The notes: generated by a model from the sequence alone, not told the origin. 64,000 bases of DNA from Deltaproteobacteria bacterium (GCA_002869015.1 PKTT01000062.1:26257-90256), one strand, 5' to 3'; shown: positions 3,469-64,000, counted from the first letter of the stretch. Numbers and translations: made by a program.

Positions 3469-3609
3469 AAGTTACCCATGGCATAAAAAAGGGGGTGACA
3501 ATAGATAGCGGCATAGATATGGACTGTTGCGCCATGAAGAAGGTTAGCTTTCATGTATTTAGGTTATCTATTTAAATTTCAAGCTAGCCAGGTGTTTTAA
3601 GCCCCAACA

Positions 3610-9181: not shown

Positions 9182-9217
9182 CTTAAATGCTTTCTCTTGT
9201 CAGGCCCTCTACAGGGC

Positions 9218-10903: not shown

Positions 10904-10912
10904 ATTCTGTCC

Positions 10913-11365: not shown

Positions 11366-11382
11366 ATCCTGAACCTCGTCGC

Positions 11383-12159: not shown

Positions 12160-12216
12160 TTTTATCTCCTTAAAAATTAAACTGCACTTACCTGAAACTG
12201 TTACCGGGATGCGCTA

Positions 12217-30070: not shown

Positions 30071-30238
30071 TTCTTCGGTATTAAGCGGTGAACTTTTCTC
30101 CTGCCGCGAATCTACTTACCAAGACAACGCTAAGCCCCCTTCATTTCCTGAGGGGCAGGGTATATGATGTGGCTTTACAAAACTGCCTCCATTTTCGGAG
30201 GCTCTTCTTTTATAAAAGTTTTCCCTGCAGAGATTCCA

Positions 30239-31927: not shown

Positions 31928-31941
31928 CAAGAGATATTGTT

Positions 31942-33682: not shown

Positions 33683-33687
33683 CTCCC

Positions 33688-34290: not shown

Positions 34291-34323
34291 AATATTTCCA
34301 AAAATAAAATTCAGATATACACG

Positions 34324-35718: not shown

Positions 35719-35736
35719 CTCACTTCCATCTCATTG

Positions 35737-48041: not shown

Positions 48042-48066
48042 ATCTTTTTTCTCCCGAGAAAAACAA

Positions 48067-48090
48067 TCGGGCCCTCCAAAGAGGGCCCGA
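48067..48090 (-). terminator. Rho-independent terminator after the pps operon (hairpin usable on both strands)
   Basis: TCGGGCCCTC-CAAA-GAGGGCCCGA. On the minus strand it is followed by TTGTTTTTCT and then directly by the RBS of the ribK-HAD gene. Confidence 0.6.
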
Positions 48091-48122
48091 CTTTTTACGT
48101 GCAAACTAACGCATCAAAAACA

Positions 48123-48623
48123 TTACTCTTTCATCTCCGAGAAGACGGCATTCTCCATAGCCGCCATCTCCTCTTTCTCTCCTTCGAGCCACTCATAGGT
48201 AAAGGGCTTGGCGGTAACTCCAGGAAAGGATTGGTCCCTTGCACCCAAAAGCTCCATCTCGTAGACCATCATTTCACTTGGCTTTACAGCCTCAAGGCTA
48301 TCCTTGACTTTCTTGGCCTTGCCTTTTACCAGATAAGCAAGGTTACCATTGCCGATTATATGAACCCCTGCGAGGCCCGAGGCATTGATGTTGACAGCCG
48401 CGGTGCCTTTGGAGTCAACGGCAAACCTCAGACGCTTAGAGTCCATAGCAACTGCCCATGTATATGCTGAACTTGGGTAACCATCTGCGCCAGCAGTCAG
48501 AAGCAAGGCGGGTGCTCCAGGCTGAAGAAAACTGACTAAATTTTCGGGCATCTCTTTTAACACACCGCTCATTTCCTTACTCCTTCTATGCTTATCTATG
48601 CATTCATCGCTTAACCATCTCAT
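48123..48623 (-). CDS. Pyridoxamine-5'-phosphate-oxidase-like (FMN-binding split-barrel) protein in the ppsC position
   Basis: 166 aa. ATGA overlap with ppsB (alternative start MSGVLK at 48572). ...PALLLTAGADGYPSSAYTWAVAMDSKRLRFAVDSKGTAAVNINASGLAGVHIIG... looks like the PNPOx-like family. No CBS-domain pattern. Confidence 0.5.
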   Translation of the reverse strand: MRWLSDECIDKHRRSKEMSGVLKEMPENLVSFLQPGAPALLLTAGADGYPSSAYTWAVAMDSKRLRFAVDSKGTAAVNINASGLAGVHIIGNGNLAYLVKGKAKKVKDSLEAVKPSEMMVYEMELLGARDQSFPGVTAKPFTYEWLEGEKEEMAAMENAVFSEMKE

Positions 48624-49750
48624 TTAAAGCGTACCCCTGTGATGAGCTGGCCTACGATCCTGTCCATAGCATCCTTCTTCTTCTCCGTCTTGGCCTGGGC
48701 CTCTTTCTTGGACCAGACTGATTCAGGCCTGACCTGAAGGATAATTATGTTGGATGGGAAGGAGAGATCCCTGTCAATGCCAAACTCAATATCATAGGGC
48801 TTGCCATAATAACGATCGATGGTTTTAGAGACCTTGCACAGCTCAACGAGTTCGTCACGCTGGAGGCAGAAACGGTTGCGGTCTTCTTCGCAAACCGCCA
48901 CCTCTTTGATATCGCTACCGCCCTCGTTGTAGACGCACTGGATCTCCTTTGCCCCTTTAGTTGAGCTGATGACATCCAAGGTAACCTTGTCCAGGAGGTA
49001 GTTGTCCGGGGTCACAAGCCCGCTGACCACTGCCTCACCGAGCCCGTAGCTGACATCCACCGAGATCTTTGAGCGGTCGCCATTTAAGGGATTAAGGGTG
49101 AAGATGACACCGGATACCCTTGAATTAACCATTTTGGGCACGCCAACTCCGATGTTCAGGAGGAAGCCCATGTCTTTGTTCATCCGGTAGGTGATCGCCT
49201 CAACGTGGTATGCGCTGGCCCAGGTCTTTTTAACGTAATCGACCAGGTCTTTTTCGCCCATAATGTTGAGGTACGTTTCCATCTGACCCGGCATTGACAC
49301 TGCACCTGAAGAACGAACCGCCACCCTTAAATTCGGGACACCGGCCAAATCGCAGAGCTTTCCATACTGTGAACATATCTCGTCCACCAACACCTGCGGG
49401 ACGGTAGCGTCATTTATAAGGTCTAGGGTAAAGTCACTTGCAGCTTGACATTTTTCCACTGAAACCTCACCCAGGGAGTTTATATATTTCCCCAGCTCAT
49501 CAAGAATTCCAGTTTCACGGATAAAAATGTCATTCGCCTTAAGCGTGAGAGCGAAACCGGGGCTAATCGGAATACCAGCCTTTCGCATTTCGCCCAGATT
49601 GGCGTTTTTCTTACCAACCAGCGGGAAGTCGGAACCTTCAAGCTCCTCATACCAGAATGACAGGCTATTTTCTTTCTCAGACATGGCCATTCCCTGACTA
49701 TTTTGAAATTCATCTTCCATCATAAAAAATTTAACTTGAGCCGCTTCCAT
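48620..49750 (-). CDS. ppsB: Phenylphosphate synthase beta-like subunit (PEP synthase N-terminal ATP-binding part)
   Basis: 376 aa. DFPLVGKKNANLGEMRKAGIPISPGFALT is typical of the PEP/pyruvate-binding (PPDK_N) domain. Adjacent to ppsA. Confidence 0.8.
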   Translation of the reverse strand: MEAAQVKFFMMEDEFQNSQGMAMSEKENSLSFWYEELEGSDFPLVGKKNANLGEMRKAGIPISPGFALTLKANDIFIRETGILDELGKYINSLGEVSVEKCQAASDFTLDLINDATVPQVLVDEICSQYGKLCDLAGVPNLRVAVRSSGAVSMPGQMETYLNIMGEKDLVDYVKKTWASAYHVEAITYRMNKDMGFLLNIGVGVPKMVNSRVSGVIFTLNPLNGDRSKISVDVSYGLGEAVVSGLVTPDNYLLDKVTLDVISSTKGAKEIQCVYNEGGSDIKEVAVCEEDRNRFCLQRDELVELCKVSKTIDRYYGKPYDIEFGIDRDLSFPSNIIILQVRPESVWSKKEAQAKTEKKKDAMDRIVGQLITGVRFK

Positions 49751-49753
49751 TTC

Positions 49754-51610
49754 TTATGCCCTCTCTACGATGACTACGCTGCCCTGATCGCCATCAATCC
49801 TTATGGTGTCACCGGTCTTGATTACTGATGTTCCGTTGCCTGTGCCAACAACAGTGGGCAGGCCATACTCACGGCAAACAATAGCCGCATGGCACATTGC
49901 GCCGCCCACGTCGGTTATGCAGCCGGCAATCTTGGTGAAGGCAGGTGCCCAACTCGGCGAAGTAGTGGTTGCGACAAGTATCTCTCCTTCTTTGAGATCG
50001 GCGAGGCCCTCTACGGTCTTGATGACGCGAGCCTTACCCTCGACCAGCCCTGAGGAGCCGGGTGAGCCCATAAGCTCGTCGGATGGGGCGCCTACGGCTG
50101 CTTCCATGCCCTTAAGCCAGTTCTTCAACGTACCTGTGGTGACGCCCCAGAGCATAATGCTGAAGGGCTCTGTTACGACATCCGGGGGGGTACCAAGGGC
50201 TGGCGGGGGAGTCCACTCCTGGAATTTAGCGATAACGCCCTTGCGCCACTCCAACTCCTTGCCCCAATAGGAGGGACCAAGGGATTTCACGCCGGTAGCC
50301 CAAGCTGTTACGTAATCCCAAAGGGCTTCTTTGATCTCGCCGCGCTTCATAAGCCAAATCTCTTCACGGTCTTTAATGAAGCCGGCAGAAACGAGTATGT
50401 CTGCGACCTGGCGCATCTTGTTCCAGAAGACGGAGTGGAACCAGTTCTCTACGTAAAAGCAGTGGTCCTCGACGTAGGGGAAGACTTTTTTAGCCATGCC
50501 AAGGGCCTGCTCGAAGGCAACGCGATCCTCGTCGTTGTCGATAAGAGCCATGTACTCTTCAACGATCTTTTCGCTCTCTGCCAGCAGTTTCTCAGTGGGG
50601 CGACCGACCTCTTTGCCAGCATTGATCGCGTCAATGTGCATGCGAATGGAGGAGAAGGGAATGTTCAGGTCGTCATTCCAGGACTTATGGTGGTGATACC
50701 ACCCAGTGCCTGTTGAGACCCAGAACCAGGGATAGCGGGATTTTTCAAGCTCATCCAGCCAGTATTTTCCGGCGCTGCTTTTTTCAAGCGCCGCCATCAT
50801 TTCCGTTGCATCCCTCTCTATAAGGATCTCATCAGCAAGGTTCTCCTCAATTGCGAGCTTTGCCAGCCTGATTAGCTCAGCATCAGGACGGTAAAGAACG
50901 ACATCAATGCCGGAGACCATCTTTGTCAGTGTAGAAATCGGAATATCGGGGAAAATTGAGTTTGCCGTGTTGATGAAGGTAAGGTAAGCGGCATAGCCCA
51001 GATTCAAGAATTCAAAGTGGTACTGCCAAATAGTCAGCCCCATGTTGATGAGCTCGTCGTACTCGGTCAGCAGATGATATCCGCTGCCGGTGCCCTTATT
51101 CTCAAAGACAACGCTCTCATCCTCAACCTCGGGAAGAGGCTTGAAGGAGACTGCTTCAAGGTCCGAAAGGAGCTTGTTTACCTTCACCTTCCATTCGGCA
51201 TAAAGGGAATCCCAGTTTTCATAATAGTAACCTGCGCGCTTCATGAATACGGGGACACGCTCGCCGATCTCTTCAGGATCGGCCACGCCAACTGGAGTTA
51301 TGTAGACATAACCGTTAACGACTCTGTGGTCTATTCCATTTGCCGGGGGCATAAGAAACGTACGAGTGTTATTCTGCGAAAGCGCCAGGTACCATGCTTC
51401 ATCCCAAATAAGGTCGAAGGGATAATGGGGCTCCGGGTAATGGAGGCCATCATAGAACCAAAGCTGTTCATCCTCATACTTACCCCTTTCGGGGTCTTCT
51501 TTTGAGAATTGGTAGTTGTAGGGATACATGCGCTCCCAACCCTCGGTGCCAGGAATCGTCGGAATGTCATGGGGGCTCTTGAATTTTCCGCTCACTGTGT
51601 TCCTCCTCAT
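49754..51610 (-). CDS. ppsA: Phenylphosphate synthase alpha-like subunit (central/His-domain part of PEP synthase)
   Basis: 618 aa. C-terminal PEP-utilising mobile domain GEILVATTTSPSWAPAFTKIAGCITDVGGAMCHAAIVCREYGLPTVVG. Size is about 70 kDa, as for PpsA. Confidence 0.8.
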   Translation of the reverse strand: MRRNTVSGKFKSPHDIPTIPGTEGWERMYPYNYQFSKEDPERGKYEDEQLWFYDGLHYPEPHYPFDLIWDEAWYLALSQNNTRTFLMPPANGIDHRVVNGYVYITPVGVADPEEIGERVPVFMKRAGYYYENWDSLYAEWKVKVNKLLSDLEAVSFKPLPEVEDESVVFENKGTGSGYHLLTEYDELINMGLTIWQYHFEFLNLGYAAYLTFINTANSIFPDIPISTLTKMVSGIDVVLYRPDAELIRLAKLAIEENLADEILIERDATEMMAALEKSSAGKYWLDELEKSRYPWFWVSTGTGWYHHHKSWNDDLNIPFSSIRMHIDAINAGKEVGRPTEKLLAESEKIVEEYMALIDNDEDRVAFEQALGMAKKVFPYVEDHCFYVENWFHSVFWNKMRQVADILVSAGFIKDREEIWLMKRGEIKEALWDYVTAWATGVKSLGPSYWGKELEWRKGVIAKFQEWTPPPALGTPPDVVTEPFSIMLWGVTTGTLKNWLKGMEAAVGAPSDELMGSPGSSGLVEGKARVIKTVEGLADLKEGEILVATTTSPSWAPAFTKIAGCITDVGGAMCHAAIVCREYGLPTVVGTGNGTSVIKTGDTIRIDGDQGSVVIVERA

Positions 51611-51675: not shown

Positions 51676-52323
51676 CTAAAGCCTGAACCAGCGAGGCTTA
51701 TCAAAGCGCTCGGTGGTCTTGAGTATTTTGCTGTTGAAGTTCTCTCCGCAGCTCTGGTTCATTTCATGGGTGAGTTCCTTGAAGACCTCGCTCCCGAGAA
51801 ACATCCCGATATCCACAGGATCCTTGAAGGTGAGCTCCAAGAGGACTTCGCTGAAACCGCCGATTAAGATGTTCCACTCTCTTGTGAAATCAACGTAATC
51901 GAGCTTGTCAATTGCAGGTATAAACTCGTTTTCCATGAAATCGTCGTAGCACTTTTCCTTACCTGGGCGGATATCGAAGTACTGGTTGAATTTCCAAACG
52001 CCCTCTTGGATTGAATACTTTTCAGGACCAAACTTGCGCTTTTGGACAAGCACTCTGGAGGTGTACTGGGAGACTAAAGCTTTGAGGTCTGACTTTATCT
52101 CCTCGAATTCCTTGGAAGCGAGGATGGTAAAAAGCTGCTGTATGGTATCGACGCTTTTTACGGAAATGATTCTTGGTCCCTGGCCTGACATGACATAAAA
52201 ACCGCCAACCGAGTTAAACCCCAACTCGTTGCTCCTCGGGATGTATGATTTTGAGATAAAATGCTCGTATTCATCCTCTGAACCTGGCAATACGTTCCAG
52301 CTCTGGGTGAACAACAGCGACAT
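51676..52323 (-). CDS. Hypothetical protein made of two homologous ~100-aa halves; first gene of the pps operon
   Basis: ORF 51676..52356. Start moved to ATG 52323 (AGGAG RBS). Internal duplication is visible by eye. No recognised family. Confidence 0.55.
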   Translation of the reverse strand: MSLLFTQSWNVLPGSEDEYEHFISKSYIPRSNELGFNSVGGFYVMSGQGPRIISVKSVDTIQQLFTILASKEFEEIKSDLKALVSQYTSRVLVQKRKFGPEKYSIQEGVWKFNQYFDIRPGKEKCYDDFMENEFIPAIDKLDYVDFTREWNILIGGFSEVLLELTFKDPVDIGMFLGSEVFKELTHEMNQSCGENFNSKILKTTERFDKPRWFRL

Positions 52324-52454
52324 CTCGTTCTCCTTTCGACCTTGGTGGCTTCTCAAAAGACCGGCTTAGCCTGATATAGAGAGCCAGTTAAACACTTTTC
52401 ATATCTCCCGCCTGAGCCACAAAGGTGCACTCAAGGGAATGGGAGTTTTCTAAA

Positions 52455-52469
52455 GCAAAAGGTGTGCCC
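52455..52469 (-). promoter_or_regulatory. Sigma-54-type promoter candidate for the pps operon (GGGCAC-N5-TTGCT)
   Basis: The minus strand reads gGGCACaccttTTGCTt, matching TGGCAC-N5-TTGCW except for the first T. Lies about 130 nt upstream of ATG 52323 and downstream of the OMP-gene terminator. Confidence 0.5.
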
Positions 52470-52617: not shown

Positions 52618-52722
52618 CCATTTTGGGCAAAAAAAGAGCGCCGACAAGGACGGAAGACTATCCCTGTCGACGCTCCTGGCCAAAAACCACTATGTATTTA
52701 TGGCCCGCAGCTAATTAGTTTT

Positions 52723-53673
52723 TTAGAACGCTACTATGGCCTTAAGCCATGTCTGGCTACCTTCAGGCATATTCTCGGCGCCATATTCCTGCATATGCTT
52801 TAACACTACCGAGTAGCGCCCCTTATTGGGCCACCACTTGATAGCAGGGCCTATGCCGGCGATTTTGCACTTGGAGTCGTCAAGCTCCTGGCCCTCAAAC
52901 TCGTCGTCAGTTACCTGCTCATAGTAAAAGCCGTTGACGCCAAATTCCCAGTCGCCGTACATGTAGCCGATCGCGTAGTCGAAATGGAACTCATCGCCCG
53001 GATCTAGGGTGCCCTTCTCGCCGCCCATGACGTAGTCGTCGTTGTCAGTGTTGATGTCATACATAAGCTTTAAAGAGAAGTCCCAATTGCCGGCCAGGTA
53101 GGTCATTGCGACTACAGGCTCAAAGGTCCAGTGGTTGCGGCTGAGAAGCTGCGTTGACGGGTCATCCTCGTCATAATTTCCGGTTGGAACGTAGGTGTCG
53201 ACTGTCGCTACAAGATGAAACTGGGGGCTGAAATGCCAACCCAGGATAAATGGGCTGATTATGATATCCCCGAGTCCGGCTGAGTCTTCATTGACCAGGG
53301 TGTCACCGCCGGCCTTGACCTCGACATCGGCGCTATAGAGGGGCACAAAGATGTGCGCCGCCCATGAGGCGCCAAGGATCTCCTTGTCGCTGACGTAGAT
53401 GAAACGTGGAACCTCAGCGATTACGCCTGCGTCGAAATCGACCGGGACCTTGTCGCCATCGGCATCCCTAAGCTCGTCCTTACTAATGTATCCAAGGTAG
53501 TTGATAAAATAATTTCCCGGCGGAGGGAGGATGCCAACGACGAAGTCCTCTGCCCCATTGGGGTAGTGCTGCCCACCTATGGCGAACGCCTGCCCGGAGG
53601 CTATAAATGATACGACAACAAAGATTATTGCTCCCATCGTGGTACTAAAATTAAATGATAATTTTTTCCGCAT
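52723..53673 (-). CDS. Outer-membrane beta-barrel channel of the 'MetA-pathway of phenol degradation' transporter family
   Basis: ORF 52723..54078. Start moved to ATG 53673 (AAGGA RBS, signal peptide MRKKLSFNFSTTMGAIIFVVVSFIASGQAFA). N-terminal HYPNGAEDF...PPPGNY pattern, alternating beta-strand sequence and a C-terminal Phe. Confidence 0.7.
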   Translation of the reverse strand: MRKKLSFNFSTTMGAIIFVVVSFIASGQAFAIGGQHYPNGAEDFVVGILPPPGNYFINYLGYISKDELRDADGDKVPVDFDAGVIAEVPRFIYVSDKEILGASWAAHIFVPLYSADVEVKAGGDTLVNEDSAGLGDIIISPFILGWHFSPQFHLVATVDTYVPTGNYDEDDPSTQLLSRNHWTFEPVVAMTYLAGNWDFSLKLMYDINTDNDDYVMGGEKGTLDPGDEFHFDYAIGYMYGDWEFGVNGFYYEQVTDDEFEGQELDDSKCKIAGIGPAIKWWPNKGRYSVVLKHMQEYGAENMPEGSQTWLKAIVAF

Positions 53674-53765
53674 AACTCTGTCCTTTCGCTTGAAGAGTCT
53701 CGGCCGCAGCGGCCAAAATAATGAATGAAGATATAAATGCTTCTTGCGTATTTGATAATTAGTGA

Positions 53766-53780
53766 GCAAAAAGCAGGCCA
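53766..53780 (-). promoter_or_regulatory. Sigma-54-type promoter candidate for the outer-membrane channel gene (TGGCCT-N5-TTGCT)
   Basis: The minus strand reads TGGCCTgctttTTGCT with correct GG/GC spacing, about 93 nt upstream of ATG 53673. Confidence 0.4.
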
Positions 53781-54147
53781 ACACAGATAAAACATGATTT
53801 TCCGGGGATGTTATCTCTTTTGAATTATGCTTGGAGGGATTTACTGACAAAAACACGTCACTCTTGTCGCATAAAATCATCCGCCCTCCTCTGTGTGCGC
53901 AAAAAAATCCTTCTGCCAGGAAAAAGAAATTCTTAGCCCAGACAAAAAATTTCCAAAAAATAAAAGTAGCTAGCTTAAAAAAAGCGCCAGAGGCTACCTG
54001 CCCATGGCGCAAATTTTTTCGGCGGGAAAATGCTACCGAATTGGTAAAAGTCAAAAACAGCCCGCTAAGACCCATCAATGGTCCATATCAGGTCTTTCGA
54101 CCAGAGAGGATACTTGACATTAGTTCGCGTGCCTTTCCGCTGGCTGG

Positions 54148-55449
54148 CTATGGCGACTTTATCTTTTCAAATGCACTTCCGCCTCCTGATGTTGCGTCAA
54201 ACCCAACCTTTGAGCCCTCAGCGCTACCTGCCGACGACGTATCGATGACATACCCCTCAAGGCCAGTCATCATTACCATGTCTCTTTCAGGGTTAAAACG
54301 GGTTGCAAGGGCCCACGACACCTCACGGGCATCCCGCGGGTTCACATCGTCATCCACAACAGTGAGAACCTTTAAGCGGCGGTCGATACTTAGCGCGTGG
54401 TATATCAGACGGCGCACCTCAGTTGATTTCATACCTGAAACCGAACAAATTGCCTTGAAACCACAAGTTCCGGGCTCCATTTCGAGATCCACAACACCAT
54501 GGAATAGCGCCTGGAGTTGACTAAGGAGCTCCGTGCCCGCAGCAAGGGAGAGCAGATTGTCAACCTCGCGGGTCCACGGGCAGAGGCCGGGGTAGAGAAT
54601 CTCTTCACGGCGGGTTAACAGCCCAATCTCTATAACAGGGCTCACATTCGTGAAGTAATTGCCGCTGTTTTCACCAAAGGGGCCCTCACTTTCACGTATC
54701 CCGGGCAATATCCGTCCCTCCAGGATGACTTCGGCAAAAGCGGGCACTTTGAGATCAACGCTCTTACAGCGGCAAAGCTCCAGAGGAAGCCCCCTTAACG
54801 CGCCGGCAGTTTCAAACTTCTCCGGCCCACCGGGACCGACCTTCACAACGGAGGCCAAAATAGTCGCGGGGTCTGCGCCCAAAATAACCGCCACTTCAAG
54901 CGGGCGTTTTTCACGCTCTGCATTTGCAATAAAATGAGTCATCGGTGGAGTGGCCGCGAGCATTCCCAACCGGTTTGGCCCGTGCACCATCATTCTGTGA
55001 ATGCCCAGCGCACCCTTTGTACCATCAGGGTCTTTAGCTACAACCAACCCTGAAGTTATATAGGGGGCTGCATCACGCTCGTGGTGGGTAAGGATTGGGA
55101 GCTCTTTCAAAAGGTCTATATCCTCGCCAATTACAACCTGCTGCACCGGCGGGGCGCCCTTAAAGTCAACCGGTGGCAGCCCTTGGACCTTTCTCTCTAT
55201 ATACGTCTTTGCCAGATCCTTTTCAGTCGTCTCAAGGGCAACTGCTGCCAACTTACGGCTACCAAAAAGATTACCGGCGATCTTTGCACGGTCATAGCCC
55301 TTTACGTTCTCAAAGAGAACTGCACATCCGGTGTCCTGCGCTTCCCTGAGGAGGGCGGCTACCTCAAATTGCGGGTCTAACGGCTCTTCGACCCTTATGA
55401 GGTCATCATCAATCTTTTGGAGGTACCCGCGTAAATCCCTGTATGACAT
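54148..55449 (-). CDS. UbiD-family decarboxylase/carboxylase, short type (fourth paralog in the window)
   Basis: 433 aa with a UbiD core (GALGIHRMMVHGPNRLG, AEVILEGRILPGIRESEGPFGENSGNY). Confidence 0.85.
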   Translation of the reverse strand: MSYRDLRGYLQKIDDDLIRVEEPLDPQFEVAALLREAQDTGCAVLFENVKGYDRAKIAGNLFGSRKLAAVALETTEKDLAKTYIERKVQGLPPVDFKGAPPVQQVVIGEDIDLLKELPILTHHERDAAPYITSGLVVAKDPDGTKGALGIHRMMVHGPNRLGMLAATPPMTHFIANAEREKRPLEVAVILGADPATILASVVKVGPGGPEKFETAGALRGLPLELCRCKSVDLKVPAFAEVILEGRILPGIRESEGPFGENSGNYFTNVSPVIEIGLLTRREEILYPGLCPWTREVDNLLSLAAGTELLSQLQALFHGVVDLEMEPGTCGFKAICSVSGMKSTEVRRLIYHALSIDRRLKVLTVVDDDVNPRDAREVSWALATRFNPERDMVMMTGLEGYVIDTSSAGSAEGSKVGFDATSGGGSAFEKIKSP

Positions 55450-55553
55450 CTAAAAACCTTTCACCTGAAGCTGTAGAACTCCGGGCTTAAAATCAATTGA
55501 ACCAAATATTTTTTTGTCATCACATTAAGCAGTAAAATAATTCTATGTATAAA

Positions 55554-56153
55554 TCACCCGGCAGAAACTTTAAGAGCAGCCTTTCTTGCCTCAAGCTCAT
55601 CAAGCGCCAATCTTTTACCGGAGGCCGTGAGAAACCAGCCCTTCAGCTCCTCGCTCAGCCTGGTGATATTTTCCTCAACGGAAATTGAAAAACGTTTTGG
55701 GTCTACCTCTTGCGCATCAGCGGAATATCGCCAAAGCTTATCAGCATCTTTAATTACAGCCTCCTCGATGGATTCGGCAAAGGCACCCGAATCGTGCCTG
55801 GAGATGATTTTCACAATTGCCGCTGTCTTTGCTTCGGGATAACCCAAATTCGAGAGTATAAGCTTCGCTATCTTTGCGCCTTCTTCTTCATGCAGGTCCC
55901 TCAGCTCGGGCCTCGTTGCCTTGGGGCCGAAGGCCGATGTTTGCAGATCCTCTGGCACAGCACTCCATCCGGTATCATGCAAAATAACCCCGGGAATTAT
56001 TACTTCTTCATCGCCACCCTCAAGCTTAATTAGCTTAAAAGAAAACTCCAATGCTATCTTGGTGTGTATTTCATTGTGCCTCGTCATCAAATATGGCTGG
56101 GCAACACGGTAAATGTTTTTGTAGATATCTTTAACAAACAAATTGTTATCCAC
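55554..56153 (-). CDS. HD-domain phosphohydrolase (paralog of 33688..34290)
   Basis: 199 aa. H...HD (HTKIALE...GVILHDTGW) and DADKL motifs. Collinear similarity to the other HD protein. Confidence 0.75.
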   Translation of the reverse strand: MDNNLFVKDIYKNIYRVAQPYLMTRHNEIHTKIALEFSFKLIKLEGGDEEVIIPGVILHDTGWSAVPEDLQTSAFGPKATRPELRDLHEEEGAKIAKLILSNLGYPEAKTAAIVKIISRHDSGAFAESIEEAVIKDADKLWRYSADAQEVDPKRFSISVEENITRLSEELKGWFLTASGKRLALDELEARKAALKVSAG

Positions 56154-56319
56154 TTTCTAAATTTTATCTAAACAGCTTTAGCTAAGATATTCGCACCAGA
56201 AATGAACAGGCAACTATGATGGCTTTAATGTGGAGGAAAGGAGGTCATTCTCCTACACAGTTAAAACCACCACAGTTGCCTTTGTTAAACTACTTCAATA
56301 AACGCCGGATGTATATCGG

Positions 56320-56940
56320 TTATTTAAAAAGCGGCGCCCCCAATGGTAAAACAGGCTTCTGGAAGTGTTCGCCAAGCAGAATCGCCGAACCGGCATAAGC
56401 GCAAAAGAAGGCAAACCCTAACTCCAGATACCCGGCAACGTTGGCGAGCTGTAGAGTTATGAAACCATTGGGTCCAATGGGGGCACCCTGCAAGGAGTAA
56501 AGTCCTTCAAGCAAAAAAACCACCCCTACCTCCGCAATACCAAGCAACAAAAACCAGCTTAACCGCCCAAATCCAATAGCTAAAACCATCGTAAGGACTG
56601 CCATGGTAATCCAGAAAAAACCCATGAGTTCAGGCGTAAAGGCTCCTGGTGCAGGGGCCTCGAAAACTTGAATCCAGAGTGTGAGGGCTGCGCCCAACGT
56701 TACAGTGGTACCAAAGAGACAAGAGATGGTGCCAAGCAGGATCTCTTCCCGGCGGTAAGCGATTATGCCACCGACAATTTGAGGAAGAGAGCATGCGACG
56801 AGCACTCCAACCATCAAGGGGGCAGAACTTATCGGGACGAATCCCGCCCTGAAACCTCCCAGGCAAGCAACTAGGACTGCCACCGAGAACATTACCAACG
56901 GCCCACCATTTGCCCAGCTCTGACTACTTCTGTTTTCCAT
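56320..56940 (-). CDS. GPR1/FUN34/YaaH (SatP-like) carboxylate channel family membrane protein
   Basis: 206 aa with six hydrophobic segments. The C-terminus ...AILLGEHFQKPVLPLGAP resembles the E. coli SatP ...AMGEVLNEQFGRTVLPIGE as recalled. Confidence 0.6.
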   Translation of the reverse strand: MENRSSQSWANGGPLVMFSVAVLVACLGGFRAGFVPISSAPLMVGVLVACSLPQIVGGIIAYRREEILLGTISCLFGTTVTLGAALTLWIQVFEAPAPGAFTPELMGFFWITMAVLTMVLAIGFGRLSWFLLLGIAEVGVVFLLEGLYSLQGAPIGPNGFITLQLANVAGYLELGFAFFCAYAGSAILLGEHFQKPVLPLGAPLFK

Positions 56941-57321
56941 AGCTTTTGCCTCCGCTTCTGATTCACCTCTCTTTTAGAGCAATTTCTAAAAGAATGTCGC
57001 TGAATCAAGGTTGTTAAAGCATGGCCGGCAAATAGCGCAAAACCATACTTTAAGTTATGACAGGTATAATTTATTGTTATTGATATTTATTTATTGACAT
57101 CTCTAAATATCTTCATGTTAGCCTTCTATTACTTGGTGAAATTTATTCCCATATTAAACATGACGATGCGTCAACAGTGTCCAACGCTCAAGATATTTAT
57201 TTTTATGGTTTTCATAAATTATTTTATTTTTACAATTTTACTTGCAATTAAAAGCACTTAGCATATCTACACTTGAGTTAAATTATTATTCACCGAAAGA
57301 TTATTCCTACGAACTGGTAAA

Positions 57322-58206
57322 ATGAATTTTCATCAGCTCAAAGTATTTTATGAAGCGGCTAAACTTCTAAGCTTTACTAAAGCGGCAGAAGTCCTTTGCG
57401 TCTCCCAGCCAGCGGTAACCGCCCAGATTCGTGCTCTTGAAGAAGCATCCGGAACTAAATTATTCAACAAAAGAGGGTCGCGATTAACCCTGTCCGAGGC
57501 GGGGGTGATTTTGATTCAATATGCCCACAAAGTATTTGAGCTCGAGTTTGAGATGGAGATGGCATTAGATGACTTTCTAAGCCTTAAGCGCGGTCTGCTA
57601 AGGGTTGCGTCGACAAAAACTTATGCACGGTACGTTATGCCCTCGGTCATCTCAAAATTTCGCGAGCGCTATCCCTCAATCAAGGTTGTCTTAGACGAGG
57701 GAAGCTCACGCTACGTTTGCCGCACACTTTTAGAGATGTTCAATGAAATTGGGGTATTGGGAGTTTCTGGTGAGGTCGAAGGCCTTCAATTTACGCCCTT
57801 TAAAGAGGAAGAGGTATGCCTCTTTGCATCGCCTTGTCATCCCCTTTGCAGAGATGAGCCCATCCACCTTGAAGAGCTGACAGATGAGCTGATTATAATG
57901 CGCGAGGAGGGCTCTACCCTACACTCTATAGTCATGGACTGCTTCAAAAAGAGCGGCCTCTCGCCGACGGTTTTGCTCCAAACAAGCAACTCCGACCTCA
58001 TAAAGGAGATGGTGGCAAAAGGTGAAAGCGTCGCCTTCCTTGTAAAAAGCGCCCTTGAGGAAGAGCTGTCCTCTGGAAAACTCGTACTTATTCCAATTAA
58101 AGATCAAACCATGAAGATAAAGGTGTGTAGCGCAAATCTTTCGGAGGCCAACTTATCACCAGCAGCTCAAGCATTTTTGGAAATTCTACATTTAGAAGCC
58201 AACTGA
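57322..58206 (+). CDS. LysR family transcriptional regulator (paralog of 46093..46992)
   Basis: 294 aa. HTH FHQLKVFYEAAKLLSFTKAAEVLCVSQPAVTAQIRALEEA. Divergent from the SatP-like/HD/UbiD genes across a 380-nt AT-rich spacer. Confidence 0.9.
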   Translation: MNFHQLKVFYEAAKLLSFTKAAEVLCVSQPAVTAQIRALEEASGTKLFNKRGSRLTLSEAGVILIQYAHKVFELEFEMEMALDDFLSLKRGLLRVASTKTYARYVMPSVISKFRERYPSIKVVLDEGSSRYVCRTLLEMFNEIGVLGVSGEVEGLQFTPFKEEEVCLFASPCHPLCRDEPIHLEELTDELIIMREEGSTLHSIVMDCFKKSGLSPTVLLQTSNSDLIKEMVAKGESVAFLVKSALEEELSSGKLVLIPIKDQTMKIKVCSANLSEANLSPAAQAFLEILHLEAN

Positions 58207-58385: not shown

Positions 58386-58426
58386 GACAAAATAAAAAAC
58401 GCCTCGGACAAACTGTCCAAGGCGTT
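58386..58426 (-). terminator. Rho-independent terminator immediately 3' of the tRNA-Ala fragment
   Basis: AACGCCT-C-GGACA-AAC-TGTCC-A-AGGCGTT hairpin, followed on the minus strand by GTTTTTTATTTT. Confidence 0.65.
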
Positions 58427-58691: not shown

Positions 58692-58725
58692 AAAAAAAGG
58701 GGCCCGGCAGATATGCTGCCGGGCC
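58692..58725 (-). terminator. Rho-independent terminator of the giant repeat-protein gene
   Basis: GGCCCGGCAG-ATATG-CTGCCGGGCC hairpin, followed on the minus strand by CCTTTTTTTAAC, 25 nt after the stop at 58750. Confidence 0.65.
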
Positions 58726-58749: not shown

Positions 58750-61700
58750 TTAAGGTGTTGAGAGGTCATCTATTGTGTAATAGAGGGTCAAGTAACTATA
58801 TTTGCTGTTGTTACCCTGCCAAATGGTAAAGTCATGAGACTGCTGCCCCAAATCCCATCCAACTACCGAGTTCCAAGTCTCAGATATAGTTAATAATGCG
58901 ATGTCGTCATCGTTAGTCGGCTCACTGTCCCTGTCACTTATACTCAGCTCTAACTCCAGATTTGAGCTTACTGTCTGCCCAACCCAAAAATCTCTCGTCC
59001 ATGAAGGGCTTGGATACCACGAGTTACCGTTCTCCACGTTTACGTCGTCCCACGTATTCACGTAACCCACAGCCAGGTCAGCTTGCACATCGCACCACCC
59101 GAAAAACTCGATGCTGTTATCATCACCCCAAGCATCATCGTTTGCCGTACTTAGATAGACACGGTCCACGGTTATCCTAACCTGGGCAAAGCGGAATGGA
59201 ACCTTTACAAACTCGCAGAAGACTAGCTTCTCATCACCGTAAAAATCAACCTGGACGTAAGCGTAGTAGACGTAGTCAATGTCCGACATGGCCGGGTTGT
59301 CGGTGAAAGTCGTCGCCGTCGGCGCTACTGTTTGGGCAACCCTCGTCCACCCCGATCCGGGACCGGTCCAAGAGGGAAAGTCCGACACATCGGTGGGAGG
59401 CATCGGCGCCGGGGGCACCTCTCCCGCCGATTGTTGGTACCTCAGGAGTACAATATTGGTCACGTTAGCTGGGTCCACGATGCTCCAGGTCAGGTCGACG
59501 TCGTATATCTGAGAGCCTGTGGTATTGTCAACCGAGGTAGTGGCTGCCAGCCCGGTGATCAGGTAATCCGCGTCAGGAATCGTCGGATCTGGGTCAACGT
59601 CATCCTGAAGGAAGTCTAGGTCAGTGTCGAAGTGATAGGGGTCCGCTGCCTCCCTCTCCAAAGTGTCGCTTCTTACGTTGGCGTACTCGAAGTAATCAAA
59701 GAGGCCGTCGCCCTCGGAATCTGCGACGAGGGGGTTGGAGAAGTAGATGAACTTAAGCTCCTGCGGAGTGCCCGCAGGGTAGTCGTAGCGATCCCATCCA
59801 CGTACTTCGTCGAAATCGGAGAGTCCATCCGCATCGGTGTCAGGGTTAAAGGGATCCGTGCCCCAGAGGTACTCCTCACGTTCACCAAGGCCGTCGAGGT
59901 CGGTGTCAGCGCAGTATACCAGGGTTAAGACATCCCCCGCCCGGAGCTTAATCTGGTCGACAGTAAGCCCTTCAAAATCCGCCGAGGTGGAGAATCGCCA
60001 CGCCCCGTCGGTGGGAACGGGATTGCTTGCCCTACCGTCAACCAGTTCCACTGGGTAGTCGGGAGCCGGAACACCGTCAGTGACGGTGAAGGGAGTCGCA
60101 GTGGCGGTGAAGGGTATTTTAAGGAAATGCCCTGCAGTGTCGAAGACCTCGCCCACCGTCACACCGTAGAGGGAAGGGTCGACATAGTAGTCGAGGTTGG
60201 TGGCGACCCTGTAGCTCTCCATGGGCCTGTCAAAGCCGTAGTCGATAGAGACGAGCGCCGTCTTCGCCATTACGTCGGTGAGGTTGTGGTTGAAGGCGCG
60301 ACCCAGCGCGTCGGTGAGCTCGTAGCTCGATGGCTGGACTATGAGACTCCGCGAATCGGAGAGAAGGTCCAGGGTCGTACCTAGGTCAAGCTCTGCTGCG
60401 AAGACCCAGCCCTCTATCCTTTGGCCAGGGCCAAGGGTCGTTTGGGGAAAATCGCCTACACTAACGTCCAGTTCTAGGTTCGCCACCGGGAGGAACTCGC
60501 CCGGCGAGTTCTGCGAAGGTACGAAGGCAGATAGAATTAGGTTGTCAATGGTAAAGGCGATGTCCCCCCGATTCTCCACGTTCAACGTCACCTGTATCAG
60601 TCCACCGGAGTAGTCTTCCTGGTTTGCCCTGGCATTTTCGTACGCCTCGCGGTGTTCGTTTGTTTGCTCGTCGGTCCAGCTGTGGGATACGGAGCCCGTA
60701 ACTGAGCCGCCACTGGGGATATACCCTTCGAATTCGACCTCTACCTCCACCCCGACCTCGGTTGTCTCGGAATGTGTGTCGGAGGACGAGTCCTCAATGG
60801 TGGTACTTGTAGACTCTGTTGTCCCTGTGGTGTAGACGAGTAAGATCTGCGGAGAGCAGCCAAACTCGATCCCAATCTCCGGGAGGTCGGCTATGAGGGG
60901 ATTGAAGCGGTAGTTGTCCTGAAGAGGGTTGAAGCCCAACTCTATGATCTCCCGCCCGTCTGAAAGGCCGTCACCGTCAGTGTCCATGTGAGAGGGCGAT
61001 GTTGAGTAGTGGTTGACCTCCATGAAGTCGGTGAGGCCGTCACCGTCGCTGTCGACGTCAGCGGCGGCGTTTACGCTTATAGAGACCAGCGGGGTAGCGA
61101 CGCCCCCGCGCCCGTCCTCCACCGTCACGGTGAAGTAGTCCGGCCCAACGAAGTCAACATCGGGCTGGTAGGTGAAGGTGCCTTCTCCATGGTTTAAAAT
61201 CGAGCCGCCCTCCAGCGAGGCCAGCGGCGAGTTGAAGAGTAGGACGTCACCGTCACCATCGGTGGCGTAGACCTCGAAGGTTATTGAATCACCCTGCTCG
61301 ATGGAGAGGTTCACGTCGAGGGCCACCGGCACGTCGTTGACCGGAGATACGTAGACCGTAACCTCGCCGATGGCCTGTGCGCCGCCAGCGTCCTGAAGCG
61401 TGTATCCGAAGGTGTCGGTCCCGTAGAAATTTAGCGGCGGCGTATAGGTGACAAGTCCAGTGGCACCGTCCAGGGTCAGCACCGCCCCGGCCTCAGAGAT
61501 AAAGTCGACGTCTACCACACCAAAGATGTCGCCCTCCGGGTCGCTGTCGTTTGCAGCGAGGTTAAGGCCCGCCGCCGGGGTGTCTTCATTGGTTGATACC
61601 ATATCGGGGTTAGCGCTGGGCGCATCGTTCACCGGTGTTACCGTCACAGTGACGGTGGTGGTGGCGAAGCCGAGCCGCCCGTCGGTTATCGTGTAGGTGA

Positions 61701-64000
61701 AGGTGTCGACGCCGTTGAAGTCAGCGAGGGGAGCGTAGGTGAAGGTGCCGTCACCATTGTTTATTACCATAGCACCCACCGCGGAGTACGGGTCGGAGGT
61801 GAGGACGGAGACGAGGTCGCCGTCGGCGTCGGTGTCGTTAATGAGTACGTAGGGCACCAGGAGGGGGTTGTCCTCCGGCCCGGAGGTTGAATCGGGGTTG
61901 GCGACCGGCGGATCATTGACCTCGTTGACGGTGATGGTCACCGTCGCCGAGTCCGTGTTCCCGCCCGCATCCTCAATAGTGTAGGTGAAGGTGTCGATGC
62001 CAAAAAAGTTGCCCGCAGGCGTGTAGAGGAAGACACCCCCCAACTCCGTGACCGTTCCTCCACCCGCGCTGATTGGGTCGTGGGTGAGAAGGGAGACTGG
62101 GTCAATGTCGGGGTCGTAGTCATTGGAGAGTGCGGCAATGAGGACGGAGGTGTCCTCTGAGGCGAGGGCGGCGTCATCCACCGCCACCGGGTCGTCATCC
62201 ACGGGGGCAACATCTATAGTTACCTCCACCGAAGAGCTGAGCGCCCCGGTCTCGTCCACCAGGGTGTATCTGAAGAGGTCCGCGCCGAAAAAGTCATCCC
62301 CGGGGGTGTAGGTGAAGACCCCCGCACCGTGGTAAGTCAGGACCCCGCCGCCGAGGGTTGACGTGGGGAAGCCCACGACGGTGAGGGTGTCGCCATCAAC
62401 GTCGTAGTCGTTGGTGAGTACGGAGAAGACCACCGCCGTTTCCTCGTCGGTTGCAAAGACATCCGCTATTCCGACGGGCGCGTCGTTTGCAGGTGTCACC
62501 GTTACTGTAACAGTCCCGGAGGAGGAGCCTGTAGTACCGCCGTCCTCGCTGACGGTATAGGTAAAGGTGACCACGCCGCTGAAGTCAGCGTCGGGGACAA
62601 AGCTAAGGGAGTTGCCGCTCTGGCTCACCGTACCGCCCGCGGGGGCCGCGTCGAAGTAGTAGATGGTAAGTACGTCGCCGTCGCCGTCGAGATCGTTGGC
62701 GAGCACGTCAATGGTCACCCCTACTCCATCCTCGGCGACGCTCCCAAAGTCAGGGTTTGCTATTGCCGTGTCGGCCACCGGGAGGACTTCCACCGTGACA
62801 ATGGCGGAGCTCGTCCCCCCGTTGCCGTCTGTGATGATGTAAGAGAAGGTGTCTATGCCGTTCCAGTTCGCGGCAGGGGTATAGAGGAAAGAACCCCCAC
62901 CGCTGTGGGCCACTTTGCCGCCACCGAGGGTGAAGTTGTCGTAACCCCCGATGGTCAACGTGTCGCCATCGGCGTCGGAGTCGTTCATGAGGACGCTGGA
63001 AGTAACGACCGCCATGTCCTCATAAGTTGCCGACGCGTCAGGTGCCGCCACTGGGGCGTCGTTCACAGGGAGGACCGTCATAGTGACCAGTCCGTAGGCT
63101 GCAGCCCCGTGGGGGTCGGTCACCGTGGTGGTGAAGTAGTCTGTGCCGTGAAAGTTCTCCGCCGGAGTGTAGATATAGGTGCCGGCAGGAGACTCCACCA
63201 CCGAGCCGCCTGTGGCGGTCACCACGTCGGCTGCGAGGGTGAGGGTGGCGTAATCGTCGTCAACATCGCCTGCCCTTGGGAAGAGCTCTCCCTCAGTGAG
63301 GGTTATCGCGATGTCCTCGGGGGTGCGCCGGGATAGATCGCCGACTACAGGTGCGTCATTTACCGGGTTGACCGTAACGTGGGCCACCGCGTCGTCGAAG
63401 CCCCCGTTGCCGTCGCTCACCGTGTAGGCAAAGCTATCCGGACCGAAGAAGTCGACCGGCGGAGTATAGGTGAAAGTGCCGTCGCCCAGCCCCTCCACAA
63501 AGCCGCCCGCCGCGGAGACGCCGGAACAGCTCGAGACCGTGAGAGTGTCGCCGTCGATGTCAGTGTCATTGGCGAGGACGTTGCCGGTTACGGTGGGTTG
63601 TTCCTCCATCGTAACTGCTATCGCCAGATCGTCGGTCGCCACCGGCGAATCGTTCGCAGAAGTCACCGTAAGGTGGACCTCTACCTCCACAGAGCCACCC
63701 TGACCGTCGATGACGGTTACGGCGAACATATCCTCACCGTTGTAGTCGCCGAGAGAAGTGTAAAAGAGGTCAGGGCTTGCGATAGAGTACGCGCCGCCGA
63801 AAGCTGTGGTCCCCACCTTGTCCACCAACTCCAGGGTGCCGCCATCAAGGTCGGTGACATGGTCAAGGACATCATCTATCAGGTAGTCGACGGAGTCCTC
63901 TGGGAGCGTTACGTAGAGGGGGTCTGCGGTGGGCACGTCGTTGACGGAGATTACGTCGATGGTAACCGTCGCCATGTCAGTGAGCCCCGCGCCGTCGGAG
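58750..64000 (-). CDS. Giant extracellular repeat protein (tandem ~95-aa cadherin/Ig-like domains + thrombospondin-type-3 Ca-binding repeats), C-terminal 1749 codons; N-terminus beyond the window
   Basis: The ORF is open to the window edge, and the frame upstream of the annotated M at 63975 continues without a stop (..SDGAGLTDMATVTIDV). At least 10 units are delimited by (V/A)xD(A/V/S/P)P motifs. DxDxDGxxDxxE repeats (DSDGDGLTDFME, DTDGDGLSDGRE, DTDADGLSDFDE) are present. Confidence 0.85.
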   Translation of the reverse strand, partial: SDGAGLTDMATVTIDVISVNDVPTADPLYVTLPEDSVDYLIDDVLDHVTDLDGGTLELVDKVGTTAFGGAYSIASPDLFYTSLGDYNGEDMFAVTVIDGQGGSVEVEVHLTVTSANDSPVATDDLAIAVTMEEQPTVTGNVLANDTDIDGDTLTVSSCSGVSAAGGFVEGLGDGTFTYTPPVDFFGPDSFAYTVSDGNGGFDDAVAHVTVNPVNDAPVVGDLSRRTPEDIAITLTEGELFPRAGDVDDDYATLTLAADVVTATGGSVVESPAGTYIYTPAENFHGTDYFTTTVTDPHGAAAYGLVTMTVLPVNDAPVAAPDASATYEDMAVVTSSVLMNDSDADGDTLTIGGYDNFTLGGGKVAHSGGGSFLYTPAANWNGIDTFSYIITDGNGGTSSAIVTVEVLPVADTAIANPDFGSVAEDGVGVTIDVLANDLDGDGDVLTIYYFDAAPAGGTVSQSGNSLSFVPDADFSGVVTFTYTVSEDGGTTGSSSGTVTVTVTPANDAPVGIADVFATDEETAVVFSVLTNDYDVDGDTLTVVGFPTSTLGGGVLTYHGAGVFTYTPGDDFFGADLFRYTLVDETGALSSSVEVTIDVAPVDDDPVAVDDAALASEDTSVLIAALSNDYDPDIDPVSLLTHDPISAGGGTVTELGGVFLYTPAGNFFGIDTFTYTIEDAGGNTDSATVTITVNEVNDPPVANPDSTSGPEDNPLLVPYVLINDTDADGDLVSVLTSDPYSAVGAMVINNGDGTFTYAPLADFNGVDTFTYTITDGRLGFATTTVTVTVTPVNDAPSANPDMVSTNEDTPAAGLNLAANDSDPEGDIFGVVDVDFISEAGAVLTLDGATGLVTYTPPLNFYGTDTFGYTLQDAGGAQAIGEVTVYVSPVNDVPVALDVNLSIEQGDSITFEVYATDGDGDVLLFNSPLASLEGGSILNHGEGTFTYQPDVDFVGPDYFTVTVEDGRGGVATPLVSISVNAAADVDSDGDGLTDFMEVNHYSTSPSHMDTDGDGLSDGREIIELGFNPLQDNYRFNPLIADLPEIGIEFGCSPQILLVYTTGTTESTSTTIEDSSSDTHSETTEVGVEVEVEFEGYIPSGGSVTGSVSHSWTDEQTNEHREAYENARANQEDYSGGLIQVTLNVENRGDIAFTIDNLILSAFVPSQNSPGEFLPVANLELDVSVGDFPQTTLGPGQRIEGWVFAAELDLGTTLDLLSDSRSLIVQPSSYELTDALGRAFNHNLTDVMAKTALVSIDYGFDRPMESYRVATNLDYYVDPSLYGVTVGEVFDTAGHFLKIPFTATATPFTVTDGVPAPDYPVELVDGRASNPVPTDGAWRFSTSADFEGLTVDQIKLRAGDVLTLVYCADTDLDGLGEREEYLWGTDPFNPDTDADGLSDFDEVRGWDRYDYPAGTPQELKFIYFSNPLVADSEGDGLFDYFEYANVRSDTLEREAADPYHFDTDLDFLQDDVDPDPTIPDADYLITGLAATTSVDNTTGSQIYDVDLTWSIVDPANVTNIVLLRYQQSAGEVPPAPMPPTDVSDFPSWTGPGSGWTRVAQTVAPTATTFTDNPAMSDIDYVYYAYVQVDFYGDEKLVFCEFVKVPFRFAQVRITVDRVYLSTANDDAWGDDNSIEFFGWCDVQADLAVGYVNTWDDVNVENGNSWYPSPSWTRDFWVGQTVSSNLELELSISDRDSEPTNDDDIALLTISETWNSVVGWDLGQQSHDFTIWQGNNSKYSYLTLYYTIDDLSTP
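61070..64000 (-). repeat. Array of at least 10 tandem ~95-aa domain repeats within the giant gene
   Basis: Boundaries fall at VNDVP, ANDSP, VNDAP, VNDAP, VADTA, ANDAP, VDDDP, VNDPP, VNDAP and VNDVP. Each unit contains a D-x-D-G-D Ca-like motif and an F-x-Y-T-(V/I)-x-D core. The repeats are diverged at the DNA level. Confidence 0.7.

Follow-up and report, generated by a model that had tools for sequence, protein, structure and literature searches.

Anaerobic phenol carboxylation is the model for ATP-driven aromatic carboxylation that depends on prenylated flavin mononucleotide (prFMN). Three aspects of it are poorly understood: the passage of the substrate across the inner membrane, the supply of prFMN and of dimethylallyl monophosphate (DMAP) in strict anaerobes, and the role of a conserved third UbiD-family protein. 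In Thauera, the cluster comprises pps-alpha/beta/gamma, ppc-alpha/beta/gamma/delta, ORF7-11 and ORF13-14, of which ORF8 is UbiX-like and ORF14 is a CoA ligase (PMC6114531). Here we analysed a 64,000-nucleotide stretch of DNA from a Deltaproteobacteria bacterium (GCA_002869015.1, PKTT01000062.1:26257-90256; hereafter the window). Our subject is its segment 54148-58206, which holds three minus-strand genes, for a SatP-like membrane protein, an HD-domain protein (HD199) and a short UbiD-family protein (UbiD433), and a divergent LysR-type regulator (LysR2). An earlier note on this DNA had read the segment as a LysR-controlled module for the uptake and prFMN-dependent (de)carboxylation of a small carboxylate, distinct from phenylphosphate carboxylation. 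Our comparisons point elsewhere: the segment is probably an accessory transcription unit of an anaerobic phenol (phenylphosphate) carboxylation island and not an independent catabolic module.

The position of the three genes argues against a distinct pathway. The minus-strand run starts with the SatP-like gene, HD199 and UbiD433 and, after a gap of 475 nt, continues into an outer-membrane channel gene, a 226-aa open reading frame (ORF; unk226), two subunits resembling phenylphosphate synthase (pps), a PNPOx-like protein and a riboflavin kinase (RFK) fused to a HAD phosphatase (RFK::HAD). The three-gene unit points the same way as the outer-membrane channel gene and the pps genes and lies immediately upstream of them. 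Past a second LysR gene (LysR1) follow a ppcB-like UbiD470, a HAD subunit, a ppcA-like UbiD482, UbiD454, UbiX and a CoA ligase, and still further on a histidine kinase, a sigma-54 response regulator and a second HD protein (HD200). The phenylphosphate carboxylase (ppc) genes, UbiX, RFK and the CoA ligase all lie within 16 kb of the unit. Much of the earlier description stands. The four ORFs are exactly where they had been placed, Pfam and profile matches bear out the SatP/YaaH, HD, UbiD and LysR assignments, the spacer of about 380 nt is as AT-rich as described, and UbiD433 is by count the fourth UbiD paralog of the window (433, 454, 470 and 482 aa).

UbiD433 contains UbiD_N, UbiD and UbiD_C domains and scores 300 bits against TIGR00148 (cutoff 245). 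It stays below the phenylphosphate carboxylase alpha and beta models TIGR02723 and TIGR02724 (81 and 89 bits against cutoffs of 565 and 469), as it does below VdcC (247 against 650), UbiD proper (PRK10922, 207 against 788) and menaquinone decarboxylase (TIGR03701, 195 against 496). R152, E255 and E260 (motif EGPFGE) do not vary among 23 orthologs and line up with HmfF, whose structure 6H6X is the closest solved one (275 bits, residues 15-431). Judged by these residues, whose catalytic roles we take to be those of the Arg and E-x4-E residues of Fdc1/UbiD, UbiD433 is predicted to be a catalytically intact prFMN enzyme.

UbiD433 has many homologs (54-61% identity) in Aromatoleum, Azoarcus, Thauera and further Rhodocyclales, and others in some delta-type metagenome-assembled genomes (MAGs). 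A genome scan yielded 80 loci with orthologs (52-61% identity), against which 21 window proteins were searched with tblastn. Of the 75 loci with enough sequence, 71 have UbiX as the next gene downstream of the ortholog. RFK is found in 75 loci, a Nudix gene follows within 3.5 kb in 54, PpsA/PpsB occur in 50-52 and a ppcC-like HAD subunit in 64. Thauera aromatica (locus L025) has the genes in the order pps, ppcB, ppcC (HAD), ppcA, the UbiD433 ortholog (56%), UbiX, RFK, CoA ligase and outer-membrane protein. The position of this ortholog before the UbiX-like ORF8 suggests that it is ORF7. In Aromatoleum and Thauera, a homolog of the outer-membrane gene follows the UbiD-UbiX-RFK-Nudix genes.

In a neighbour-joining tree, ppcA and ppcB form separate groups, and a third group splits into two sister clades, one with UbiD433 and the Thauera/Aromatoleum genes, the other with UbiD454 and the UbiDs that adjoin UbiX in Desulfobacterota loci. 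UbiD433 is the best window match of the Thauera/Aromatoleum-type third UbiD, although UbiX adjoins not UbiD433 but its sister paralog UbiD454 in the window. That the window holds both UbiX-associated third-UbiD clades, the Desulfobacterota type and the Rhodocyclales type, suggests duplication or lateral acquisition. The phylogeny called for in the earlier note places the paralog outside the ppcA and ppcB clades and groups it with the third UbiD of phenol clusters. Given its orthology, its pps-ppc neighbourhoods and its place in the tree, UbiD433 does not mark a separate pathway but is a second version of a component standard in phenol clusters.

That HmfF, a furandicarboxylate decarboxylase, is the nearest enzyme among solved structures would suit a rival explanation close to the earlier note. 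Here an independent LysR module would import a small aromatic or aliphatic carboxylate through the channel, UbiD433 would decarboxylate it (a hydroxybenzoate, furandicarboxylate or phthalate-type compound, for example) and the HD protein would be auxiliary; the pathway would be separate from phenylphosphate carboxylation or at most supply a phenolic product to it. We regard this as distinctly unlikely, as in at least 50 of 83 loci the UbiD433 orthologs are part of pps-ppc clusters, beside UbiX, and as the neighbourhoods of the SatP-like gene point the same way.

Genomic context is the strongest result on the SatP-like protein. Our survey covered 33 loci with a near-complete copy of its gene. 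PpsB begins 16-50 nt downstream of the gene in 20 of the 33, and likewise in 2 partial copies, and pps genes stand beside it in 3 further loci; phenylphosphate-synthase-like genes directly flank it in 23 of 27 informative loci. UbiX is found upstream in 18 loci. One Desulfobacterota MAG (L086) carries ppc genes, UbiD and UbiX on one strand and, divergently, LysR, SatP-like, PpsB, PpsA and CoA ligase genes. In the literature searched, no paper joined phenylphosphate and YaaH, and the linkage of a SatP-like protein to pps did not turn up; the earlier remark that a link between a SatP-like channel and UbiD is undescribed does seem to hold.

Assignment to the family rests on several comparisons. 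The match to Pfam PF01184 is marginal (26.7 bits, cutoff 25). A profile of the SatP-like family matches SatP (5YS3/5ZUG) over its full length at E 2.6e-7, and an AlphaFold2 (AF2) model with six helices (predicted local distance difference test (pLDDT) score 78) resembles SatP 5YS3, 5YS8 and 5ZUG in Foldseek at template-modelling (TM) scores of 0.75/0.82-0.85 and 19% identity, the next match being UreI. Membership in the SatP (AceTr/GPR1-FUN34-YaaH) superfamily is supported at the level of this predicted fold. About 80 protein clusters are similar to the SatP-like protein (48-78% identity), all derived from MAGs, for example of Deferrisomatales and Desulfobacterota. When 1.84 billion representatives were searched exhaustively with the profile, six matched at or below 1e-30, after which scores fell steeply, indicating a small and tight subfamily.

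The hallmarks of the SatP family are an NPAPLGL(M/S) signature and a hydrophobic F17-L131-Y72 constriction, at which smaller residues are reported to widen specificity toward larger acids (PMC8379382). In our subfamily the signature is degenerate: it reads NGGPLVM in the window and NPAPWAL as subfamily consensus, with the N, the second P and partly the L kept. The HMMER alignment pairs F17 with V20, a position occupied by V in 22 of 23 family members, and Y72 with F76, which is invariant in the family; L131 probably corresponds to V138, the alignment being gapped there and the mapping uncertain. Adding SatP with mafft --keeplength was unreliable in the middle of the alignment, and Y72 and L131 were mapped from the HMMER alignment instead. 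The proposal that the channel carries a small carboxylate is not borne out by these replacements. SatP-family members are carboxylate channels (PMC8379382), which would favour an independent carboxylate module; however, neither the signature nor the F-L-Y constriction is conserved here, and the gene directly flanks pps in the 23 loci mentioned above.

A further type of cluster, with one UbiD, recurs among the loci (L095; L124, L126) in the order UbiX, PAC_bac-like, SatP-like, PpsB, PpsA, UbiD, AMP-binding ligase, low-molecular-weight phosphotyrosine phosphatase and UPF0261. In L095 it was seen at 3085-3534 and 8641-12161, with the PAC_bac-like gene between UbiX and the SatP-like gene. This type might act on an aniline-type or other phenolic compound, and the related L125/L126 end in a CBS-HD pair.

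HD199 matches PF01966 with 29.2 bits (cutoff 22). Because a sequence search of the PDB gave nothing significant (best E 0.1), we turned to structure prediction and fold search. The AF2 model (pLDDT 94) has as its nearest folds 2PQ7 and 3DJB, uncharacterised stand-alone HD hydrolases, and the NTP pyrophosphohydrolase YpgQ. Residues H30, H59-D60, H88, H120-D121 and D136, invariant in the family alignment, make up a complete two-metal signature. The family comprises 225 clusters (44-53% identity, ~190-200 aa) in Desulfobacterota and recurs in UbiD/pps clusters, again at odds with a pathway distinct from phenylphosphate carboxylation. It follows ppcA-ppcD-UbiD-UbiX-RFK and one opposite-strand gene in L123. 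In L116 a pps/SatP-like/UbiD cluster is followed by a HAD gene resembling the HAD half of the window's RFK::HAD and then by two HD genes; in L124 the family lies near a LysR/UbiD/PpsA-like cluster, and in L125/L126 it closes the series UbiD-CoA ligase-UPF0261-CBS-HD. The literature searched contained no paper that joins at least three of UbiD, UbiX, HD domain and phosphohydrolase, and the linkage of HD proteins to UbiD clusters was not found there.

A possible task for HD199 is suggested by what these loci lack or hold. In E. coli, Nudix hydrolases convert dimethylallyl pyrophosphate (DMAPP) to DMAP, the UbiX co-substrate, for prFMN (PMC12359138). Nudix is present in 54 Rhodocyclales-type loci and in neither the window nor any YaaH/HD locus, and the HD family is present in 0 of 83 Rhodocyclales-type loci, a distribution complementary to that of Nudix. 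Together with the known production of DMAP by Nudix enzymes, this makes a DMAPP phosphatase role for HD199 a reasonable guess, which we put forward tentatively and not as the likely outcome. In Rhodocyclales phenol clusters RFK is unfused, and 54 of 80 loci have a Nudix gene no more than 3.5 kb downstream of the third-type UbiD; set against this arrangement, the RFK::HAD fusion of the window hints that its HAD domain may do the Nudix job (perhaps DMAPP to DMAP). HD199 as a simple replacement for Nudix was downgraded, the PpaX-like HAD fused to RFK being an equally good positional analog.

The second HD gene of the window, HD200, adjoins a PGP/PpaX-like HAD gene (region 33014-36894, minus strand) and lies downstream of the sigma-54 response regulator and of a GHMP-kinase-like protein. 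The latter has weak similarity to beta-ribofuranosylaminobenzene-5'-phosphate synthase (66 bits, cutoff 328), an enzyme whose substrate is 4-aminobenzoate or 4-hydroxybenzoate.

The same cofactor question underlies a second rival explanation, in which the genes form a cofactor-supply cassette. UbiD433, like its Thauera ortholog, would then not be a catabolic enzyme; it would bind prFMN and help to mature the oxygen-sensitive PpcA/PpcB carboxylase or hand the cofactor over to it. Its partners would be UbiX, RFK, a PNPOx-like flavoprotein and a DMAP-making pyrophosphatase (Nudix, HD or HAD). The ORF7-type UbiD almost invariably precedes UbiX, RFK and often Nudix, and in the window the PNPOx-like and RFK::HAD genes come after the pps genes, both of which fit such a cassette. 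Nudix enzymes are DMAP producers (PMC12359138), and LpdD, a prFMNH2-binding chaperone, helps to activate UbiD enzymes (PMC10865409). However, the catalytic E-x4-E and R are invariant in UbiD433, as in a working decarboxylase, and UbiX/UbiD pairs normally consist of a cofactor synthase and an enzyme. We know of no experimental precedent for a UbiD paralog acting as a maturase, which also counts against this explanation, and on balance we find it unlikely.

Several points weigh against reading the segment as an accessory unit for phenol carboxylation. The exact SatP-HD-UbiD triad is found nowhere else among ~120 related loci. The earlier note had set down beforehand that a neighbourhood conserved in no relative would speak against its module, and the count was 0: YaaH or HD homologs occur in 0 of 83 UbiD433-type loci, and a UbiD433-type gene stands next to YaaH in 0 of 37 loci. 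The 27 informative SatP-like loci include 4 that have enough downstream sequence but no adjacent pps gene, in one of which (L101) genes of a 4-hydroxybenzoyl-CoA-reductase-like molybdoenzyme adjoin the SatP-like gene. The SatP-like loci are moreover related to each other, forming 12 clusters at 80% identity, 7 of them with a pps-adjacent member, and in the closest relatives (L084 and L085) the SatP-like gene is alone with LysR, outside any pps operon. Two loci (L121, L122) carry the HD family as CBS-HD pairs without nearby UbiD genes, and the PpaX-like HAD of RFK::HAD matches the position of Nudix at least as well as HD199 does. Since phenol permeates membranes, it is not obvious that a channel would be needed.

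What does recur is the linkage of the SatP-like gene with phenylphosphate synthase, together with UbiX and LysR, and that of the HD gene with UbiD/pps clusters. The uniqueness of the triad, which is seen elsewhere in none of the three families, also counts against an independent carboxylate module. It would fit a fortuitous juxtaposition, in which the three genes were joined by rearrangement in a mosaic aromatic-degradation island and are not coupled, each perhaps serving the island independently. The gaps of 166 and 104 nt between them are rather long for a tight operon, and the island has duplicated functions (two LysR, two HD and two third-type UbiD genes). However, the three genes share one strand with no terminator-like site between them, and each family is independently tied to UbiD/pps clusters; we hold mere juxtaposition to be very unlikely and retain the accessory unit as the preferred reading.

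Control by LysR2 is consistent with this accessory unit. The regulator combines the HTH_1 and LysR_substrate domains with a divergent target gene and a candidate T-N11-A box, the features of the LysR type, and is, as described earlier, a paralog of LysR1 (49% identity). The divergent LysR/SatP-like arrangement is conserved in L084 and L085, whose LysR2 orthologs share 58-69% identity. The candidate box (Table 1) sits in the sole well-conserved block common to the spacers of the window and L085 (AAAATAATTTAT..ACCATAAAAA..TTGA; alignment A3), and LysR2 probably binds it, to judge from this pattern. The spacer also has sigma-70-like hexamers on both strands, which are consensus matches only. Our scan of the window found no terminator-like site between the SatP-like gene, HD199 and UbiD433, which makes a LysR-controlled three-gene unit plausible. 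The unit proposed in the earlier note is thus plausible, with the box common to L085 and no internal terminator in its favour, but its role as a separate pathway is not supported. The sigma-70 and terminator scans report consensus matches, the sole convincing one being the 18-bp hairpin that follows the outer-membrane gene. As this first strong terminator lies beyond the outer-membrane gene, read-through into that gene is possible.

The pattern search of the window returned no sigma-54-like element upstream of the SatP-like gene. That the unit has its own LysR and no sigma-54 match, whereas the outer-membrane and pps genes have sigma-54-like sites, would be expected if it were an independent module. 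The sigma-54 pattern has 49 matches in the window against ~60 expected and is not enriched over chance, so the two sites before the outer-membrane gene and unk226 (Table 1) are only positionally suggestive. They agree with the presence of the sigma-54 response regulator in the island.

Table 1. Features of the three-gene unit and of the surrounding aromatic island, in window coordinates.
Feature	Coordinates	Strand	Basis or remark
LysR2, LysR-type regulator	57322-58206	+	Pfam HTH_1 + LysR_substrate; divergent from SatP-like gene
Divergent control region, 381 nt, AT-rich	56941-57321	.	sequence; GC ~0.35-0.40
Candidate LysR box TTTATGAAAACCATAAA	57202-57218	.	TTAT-N7-ATAA, = T-N11-A
SatP-like protein, 206 aa, predicted six-helix SatP-fold membrane protein of a small divergent subfamily	56320-56940	-	PF01184 + fold
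HD199, 199 aa, predicted stand-alone two-metal HD phosphohydrolase	55554-56153	-	PF01966
UbiD433, 433 aa, short UbiD-family enzyme, HmfF-like	54148-55449	-	UbiD_N/UbiD/UbiD_C, TIGR00148
Candidate sigma-54 -24/-12 element TGGCCTGCTTTTTGC	53766-53780	-	2 mismatches, correct GG/GC spacing; ~90 nt upstream of outer-membrane gene
Outer-membrane channel gene, Phenol_MetA_deg family	52723-53673	-	PF13557, 196 bits
First strong intrinsic-terminator-like hairpin	52634-52677	-	18-bp stem + T-run; follows outer-membrane gene
Candidate sigma-54 promoter GGGCACACCTTTTGC	52455-52469	-	1 mismatch; upstream of unk226 + pps genes
unk226, 226-aa ORF	51676-52356	-	directly upstream of large pps subunit
Large pps-like subunit, 618 aa, PEP-utilizers	49754-51610	-	57-59% identity to Thauera/Aromatoleum genes
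Small pps-like subunit, 376 aa, PPDK_N	48620-49750	-	36-40% identity to Thauera/Aromatoleum genes
RFK::HAD, CTP-type riboflavin kinase fused to PpaX-like HAD phosphatase	46989-48104	-	
LysR1, paralog of LysR2	46093-46992		
UbiD454	40876-42240	-	sister-clade third UbiD; UbiX adjoins
UbiX flavin prenyltransferase	40283-40879	-	NF004685, 253 bits vs cutoff 188
Sigma-54 response regulator	34324-35718		
HD200, second HD protein, 200 aa	33688-34290	-	35% identity to HD199

Around these genes, the likely start of the outer-membrane channel gene is the MRKKLSF codon at 53673, after which comes a signal-peptide-like stretch. Two long mechanical ORFs, 53831-54520 on the plus and 52723-54078 on the minus strand, overlap the 3' end of UbiD433 and the intergenic gap and are probably spurious. 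For unk226 there was no homolog among the ~120 fetched loci, its sole family match being a sub-threshold DUF4286. An Rfam scan of the entire window detected no riboswitch, for FMN or otherwise, and no other RNA family. Beyond LysR2, the minus strand has a 1741-aa ORF (58750-63975) with many repeated VNDAP/TxxxDxDGD-like units and a GC content of ~60%, against 40-50% in its neighbours; strong hairpins at 58701-58725 and 58398-58426 flank it. On the other side, upstream of the aromatic island, the plus strand carries a RACo-type corrinoid activase (Fer2 + RACo domains) and DUF1638 genes (30164-32631).

Our comparisons establish gene identities, folds, orthology and neighbourhood statistics; for substrates, control, co-transcription and enzymatic roles we infer the following. 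LysR2 would drive the SatP-like gene, HD199 and UbiD433 from the spacer, and transcription could continue into the outer-membrane channel gene with its sigma-54-type site. The SatP-fold protein may act as an inner-membrane channel that passes a phenolic substrate, or an aromatic carboxylate intermediate such as 4-hydroxybenzoate, to or from the pps/ppc enzymes, through a pore whose F-L-Y constriction appears to be replaced by smaller, fully hydrophobic residues. HD199, as a two-metal phosphohydrolase or pyrophosphohydrolase, would serve the phosphate or cofactor chemistry of the island; the leading guess is conversion of DMAPP to DMAP for UbiX, the step that Nudix is positioned to perform in Rhodocyclales clusters. 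UbiD433 might act as an accessory reversible aromatic-acid (de)carboxylase or as a prFMN-handling partner.

A bolder version of this accessory-unit reading, speculative and improbable as a whole, takes the SatP-fold subfamily as a dedicated channel for neutral or weakly acidic aromatics (phenol or aniline-type compounds) coupled to phenylphosphate synthase, and HD199 as a non-Nudix DMAPP phosphatase. The substrate would then be phosphorylated and trapped on entry, by analogy with GlpF/GlpK or with a primitive group translocation by the phosphoenolpyruvate (PEP)-synthase-like kinase. If true, this would give AceTr its first member for an aromatic substrate that is not a carboxylate, and anaerobic phenol degradation its first described component for uptake across the inner membrane.

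Taken together, these results correct the idea of a separate decarboxylation pathway at this locus and leave the known pathway unchanged; the gain is a set of candidates for its missing accessory functions. The locus and its relatives offer a SatP-fold membrane protein with a genetic link to the phenol kinase, two occupants of the niche of the Rhodocyclales Nudix (an HD hydrolase family and an RFK::HAD fusion), and two sister clades of UbiX-associated UbiD.

The SatP-like protein shares with the SatP/YaaH channel (AceTr, TC 2.A.96; 5YS3, 5ZUG) the full-length profile match, the predicted six-helix fold and the C-terminal E-x-F-x-R/K-P-x-LP-x-G motif. It differs in its low identity, in the signature and constriction residues given above and in its setting, phenylphosphate-synthase operons instead of acetate metabolism. 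UbiD433 resembles the 2,5-furandicarboxylate decarboxylase HmfF (6H6V/6H6X, with a UbiX-type partner) in its short (~450 aa) architecture and EGPFGE motif; identity is moderate, and its context is a phenol cluster, not furan degradation. HD199 has the stand-alone HD fold of ~190-200 aa and the complete metal-ligand set of Bacillus subtilis YpgQ (TM 0.67/0.70), although it shares 14-19% identity with YpgQ and related HD hydrolases and its family is also CBS-paired outside UbiD clusters. With regard to the Nudix DMAPP phosphatases (NudJ/NudF/NudB), the HD family takes the place of the Rhodocyclales Nudix in prFMN-related clusters, and no HD-bearing locus has a Nudix gene.

The closest system overall is the pps-ppc cluster of Thauera and Aromatoleum. 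The window has orthologs of both its pps subunits, of ppcB, the HAD-type ppc subunit and ppcA, of the UbiX-adjacent type of UbiD (UbiD433, 55-59%), and of UbiX, CTP-type RFK, the CoA ligase and the Phenol_MetA_deg protein. It differs in its rearranged gene order, which leaves UbiD433 apart from UbiX, in a second third-type UbiD (UbiD454), and in its regulators, which are LysR-type proteins and a sigma-54 response regulator instead of the XylR-type PheR. In place of Nudix it has two HD proteins and RFK::HAD, and it carries a SatP-like gene, which is found in 0 of 83 Rhodocyclales-type loci. In sum, the well-known pps-ppc system is present here in a Desulfobacterota variant.

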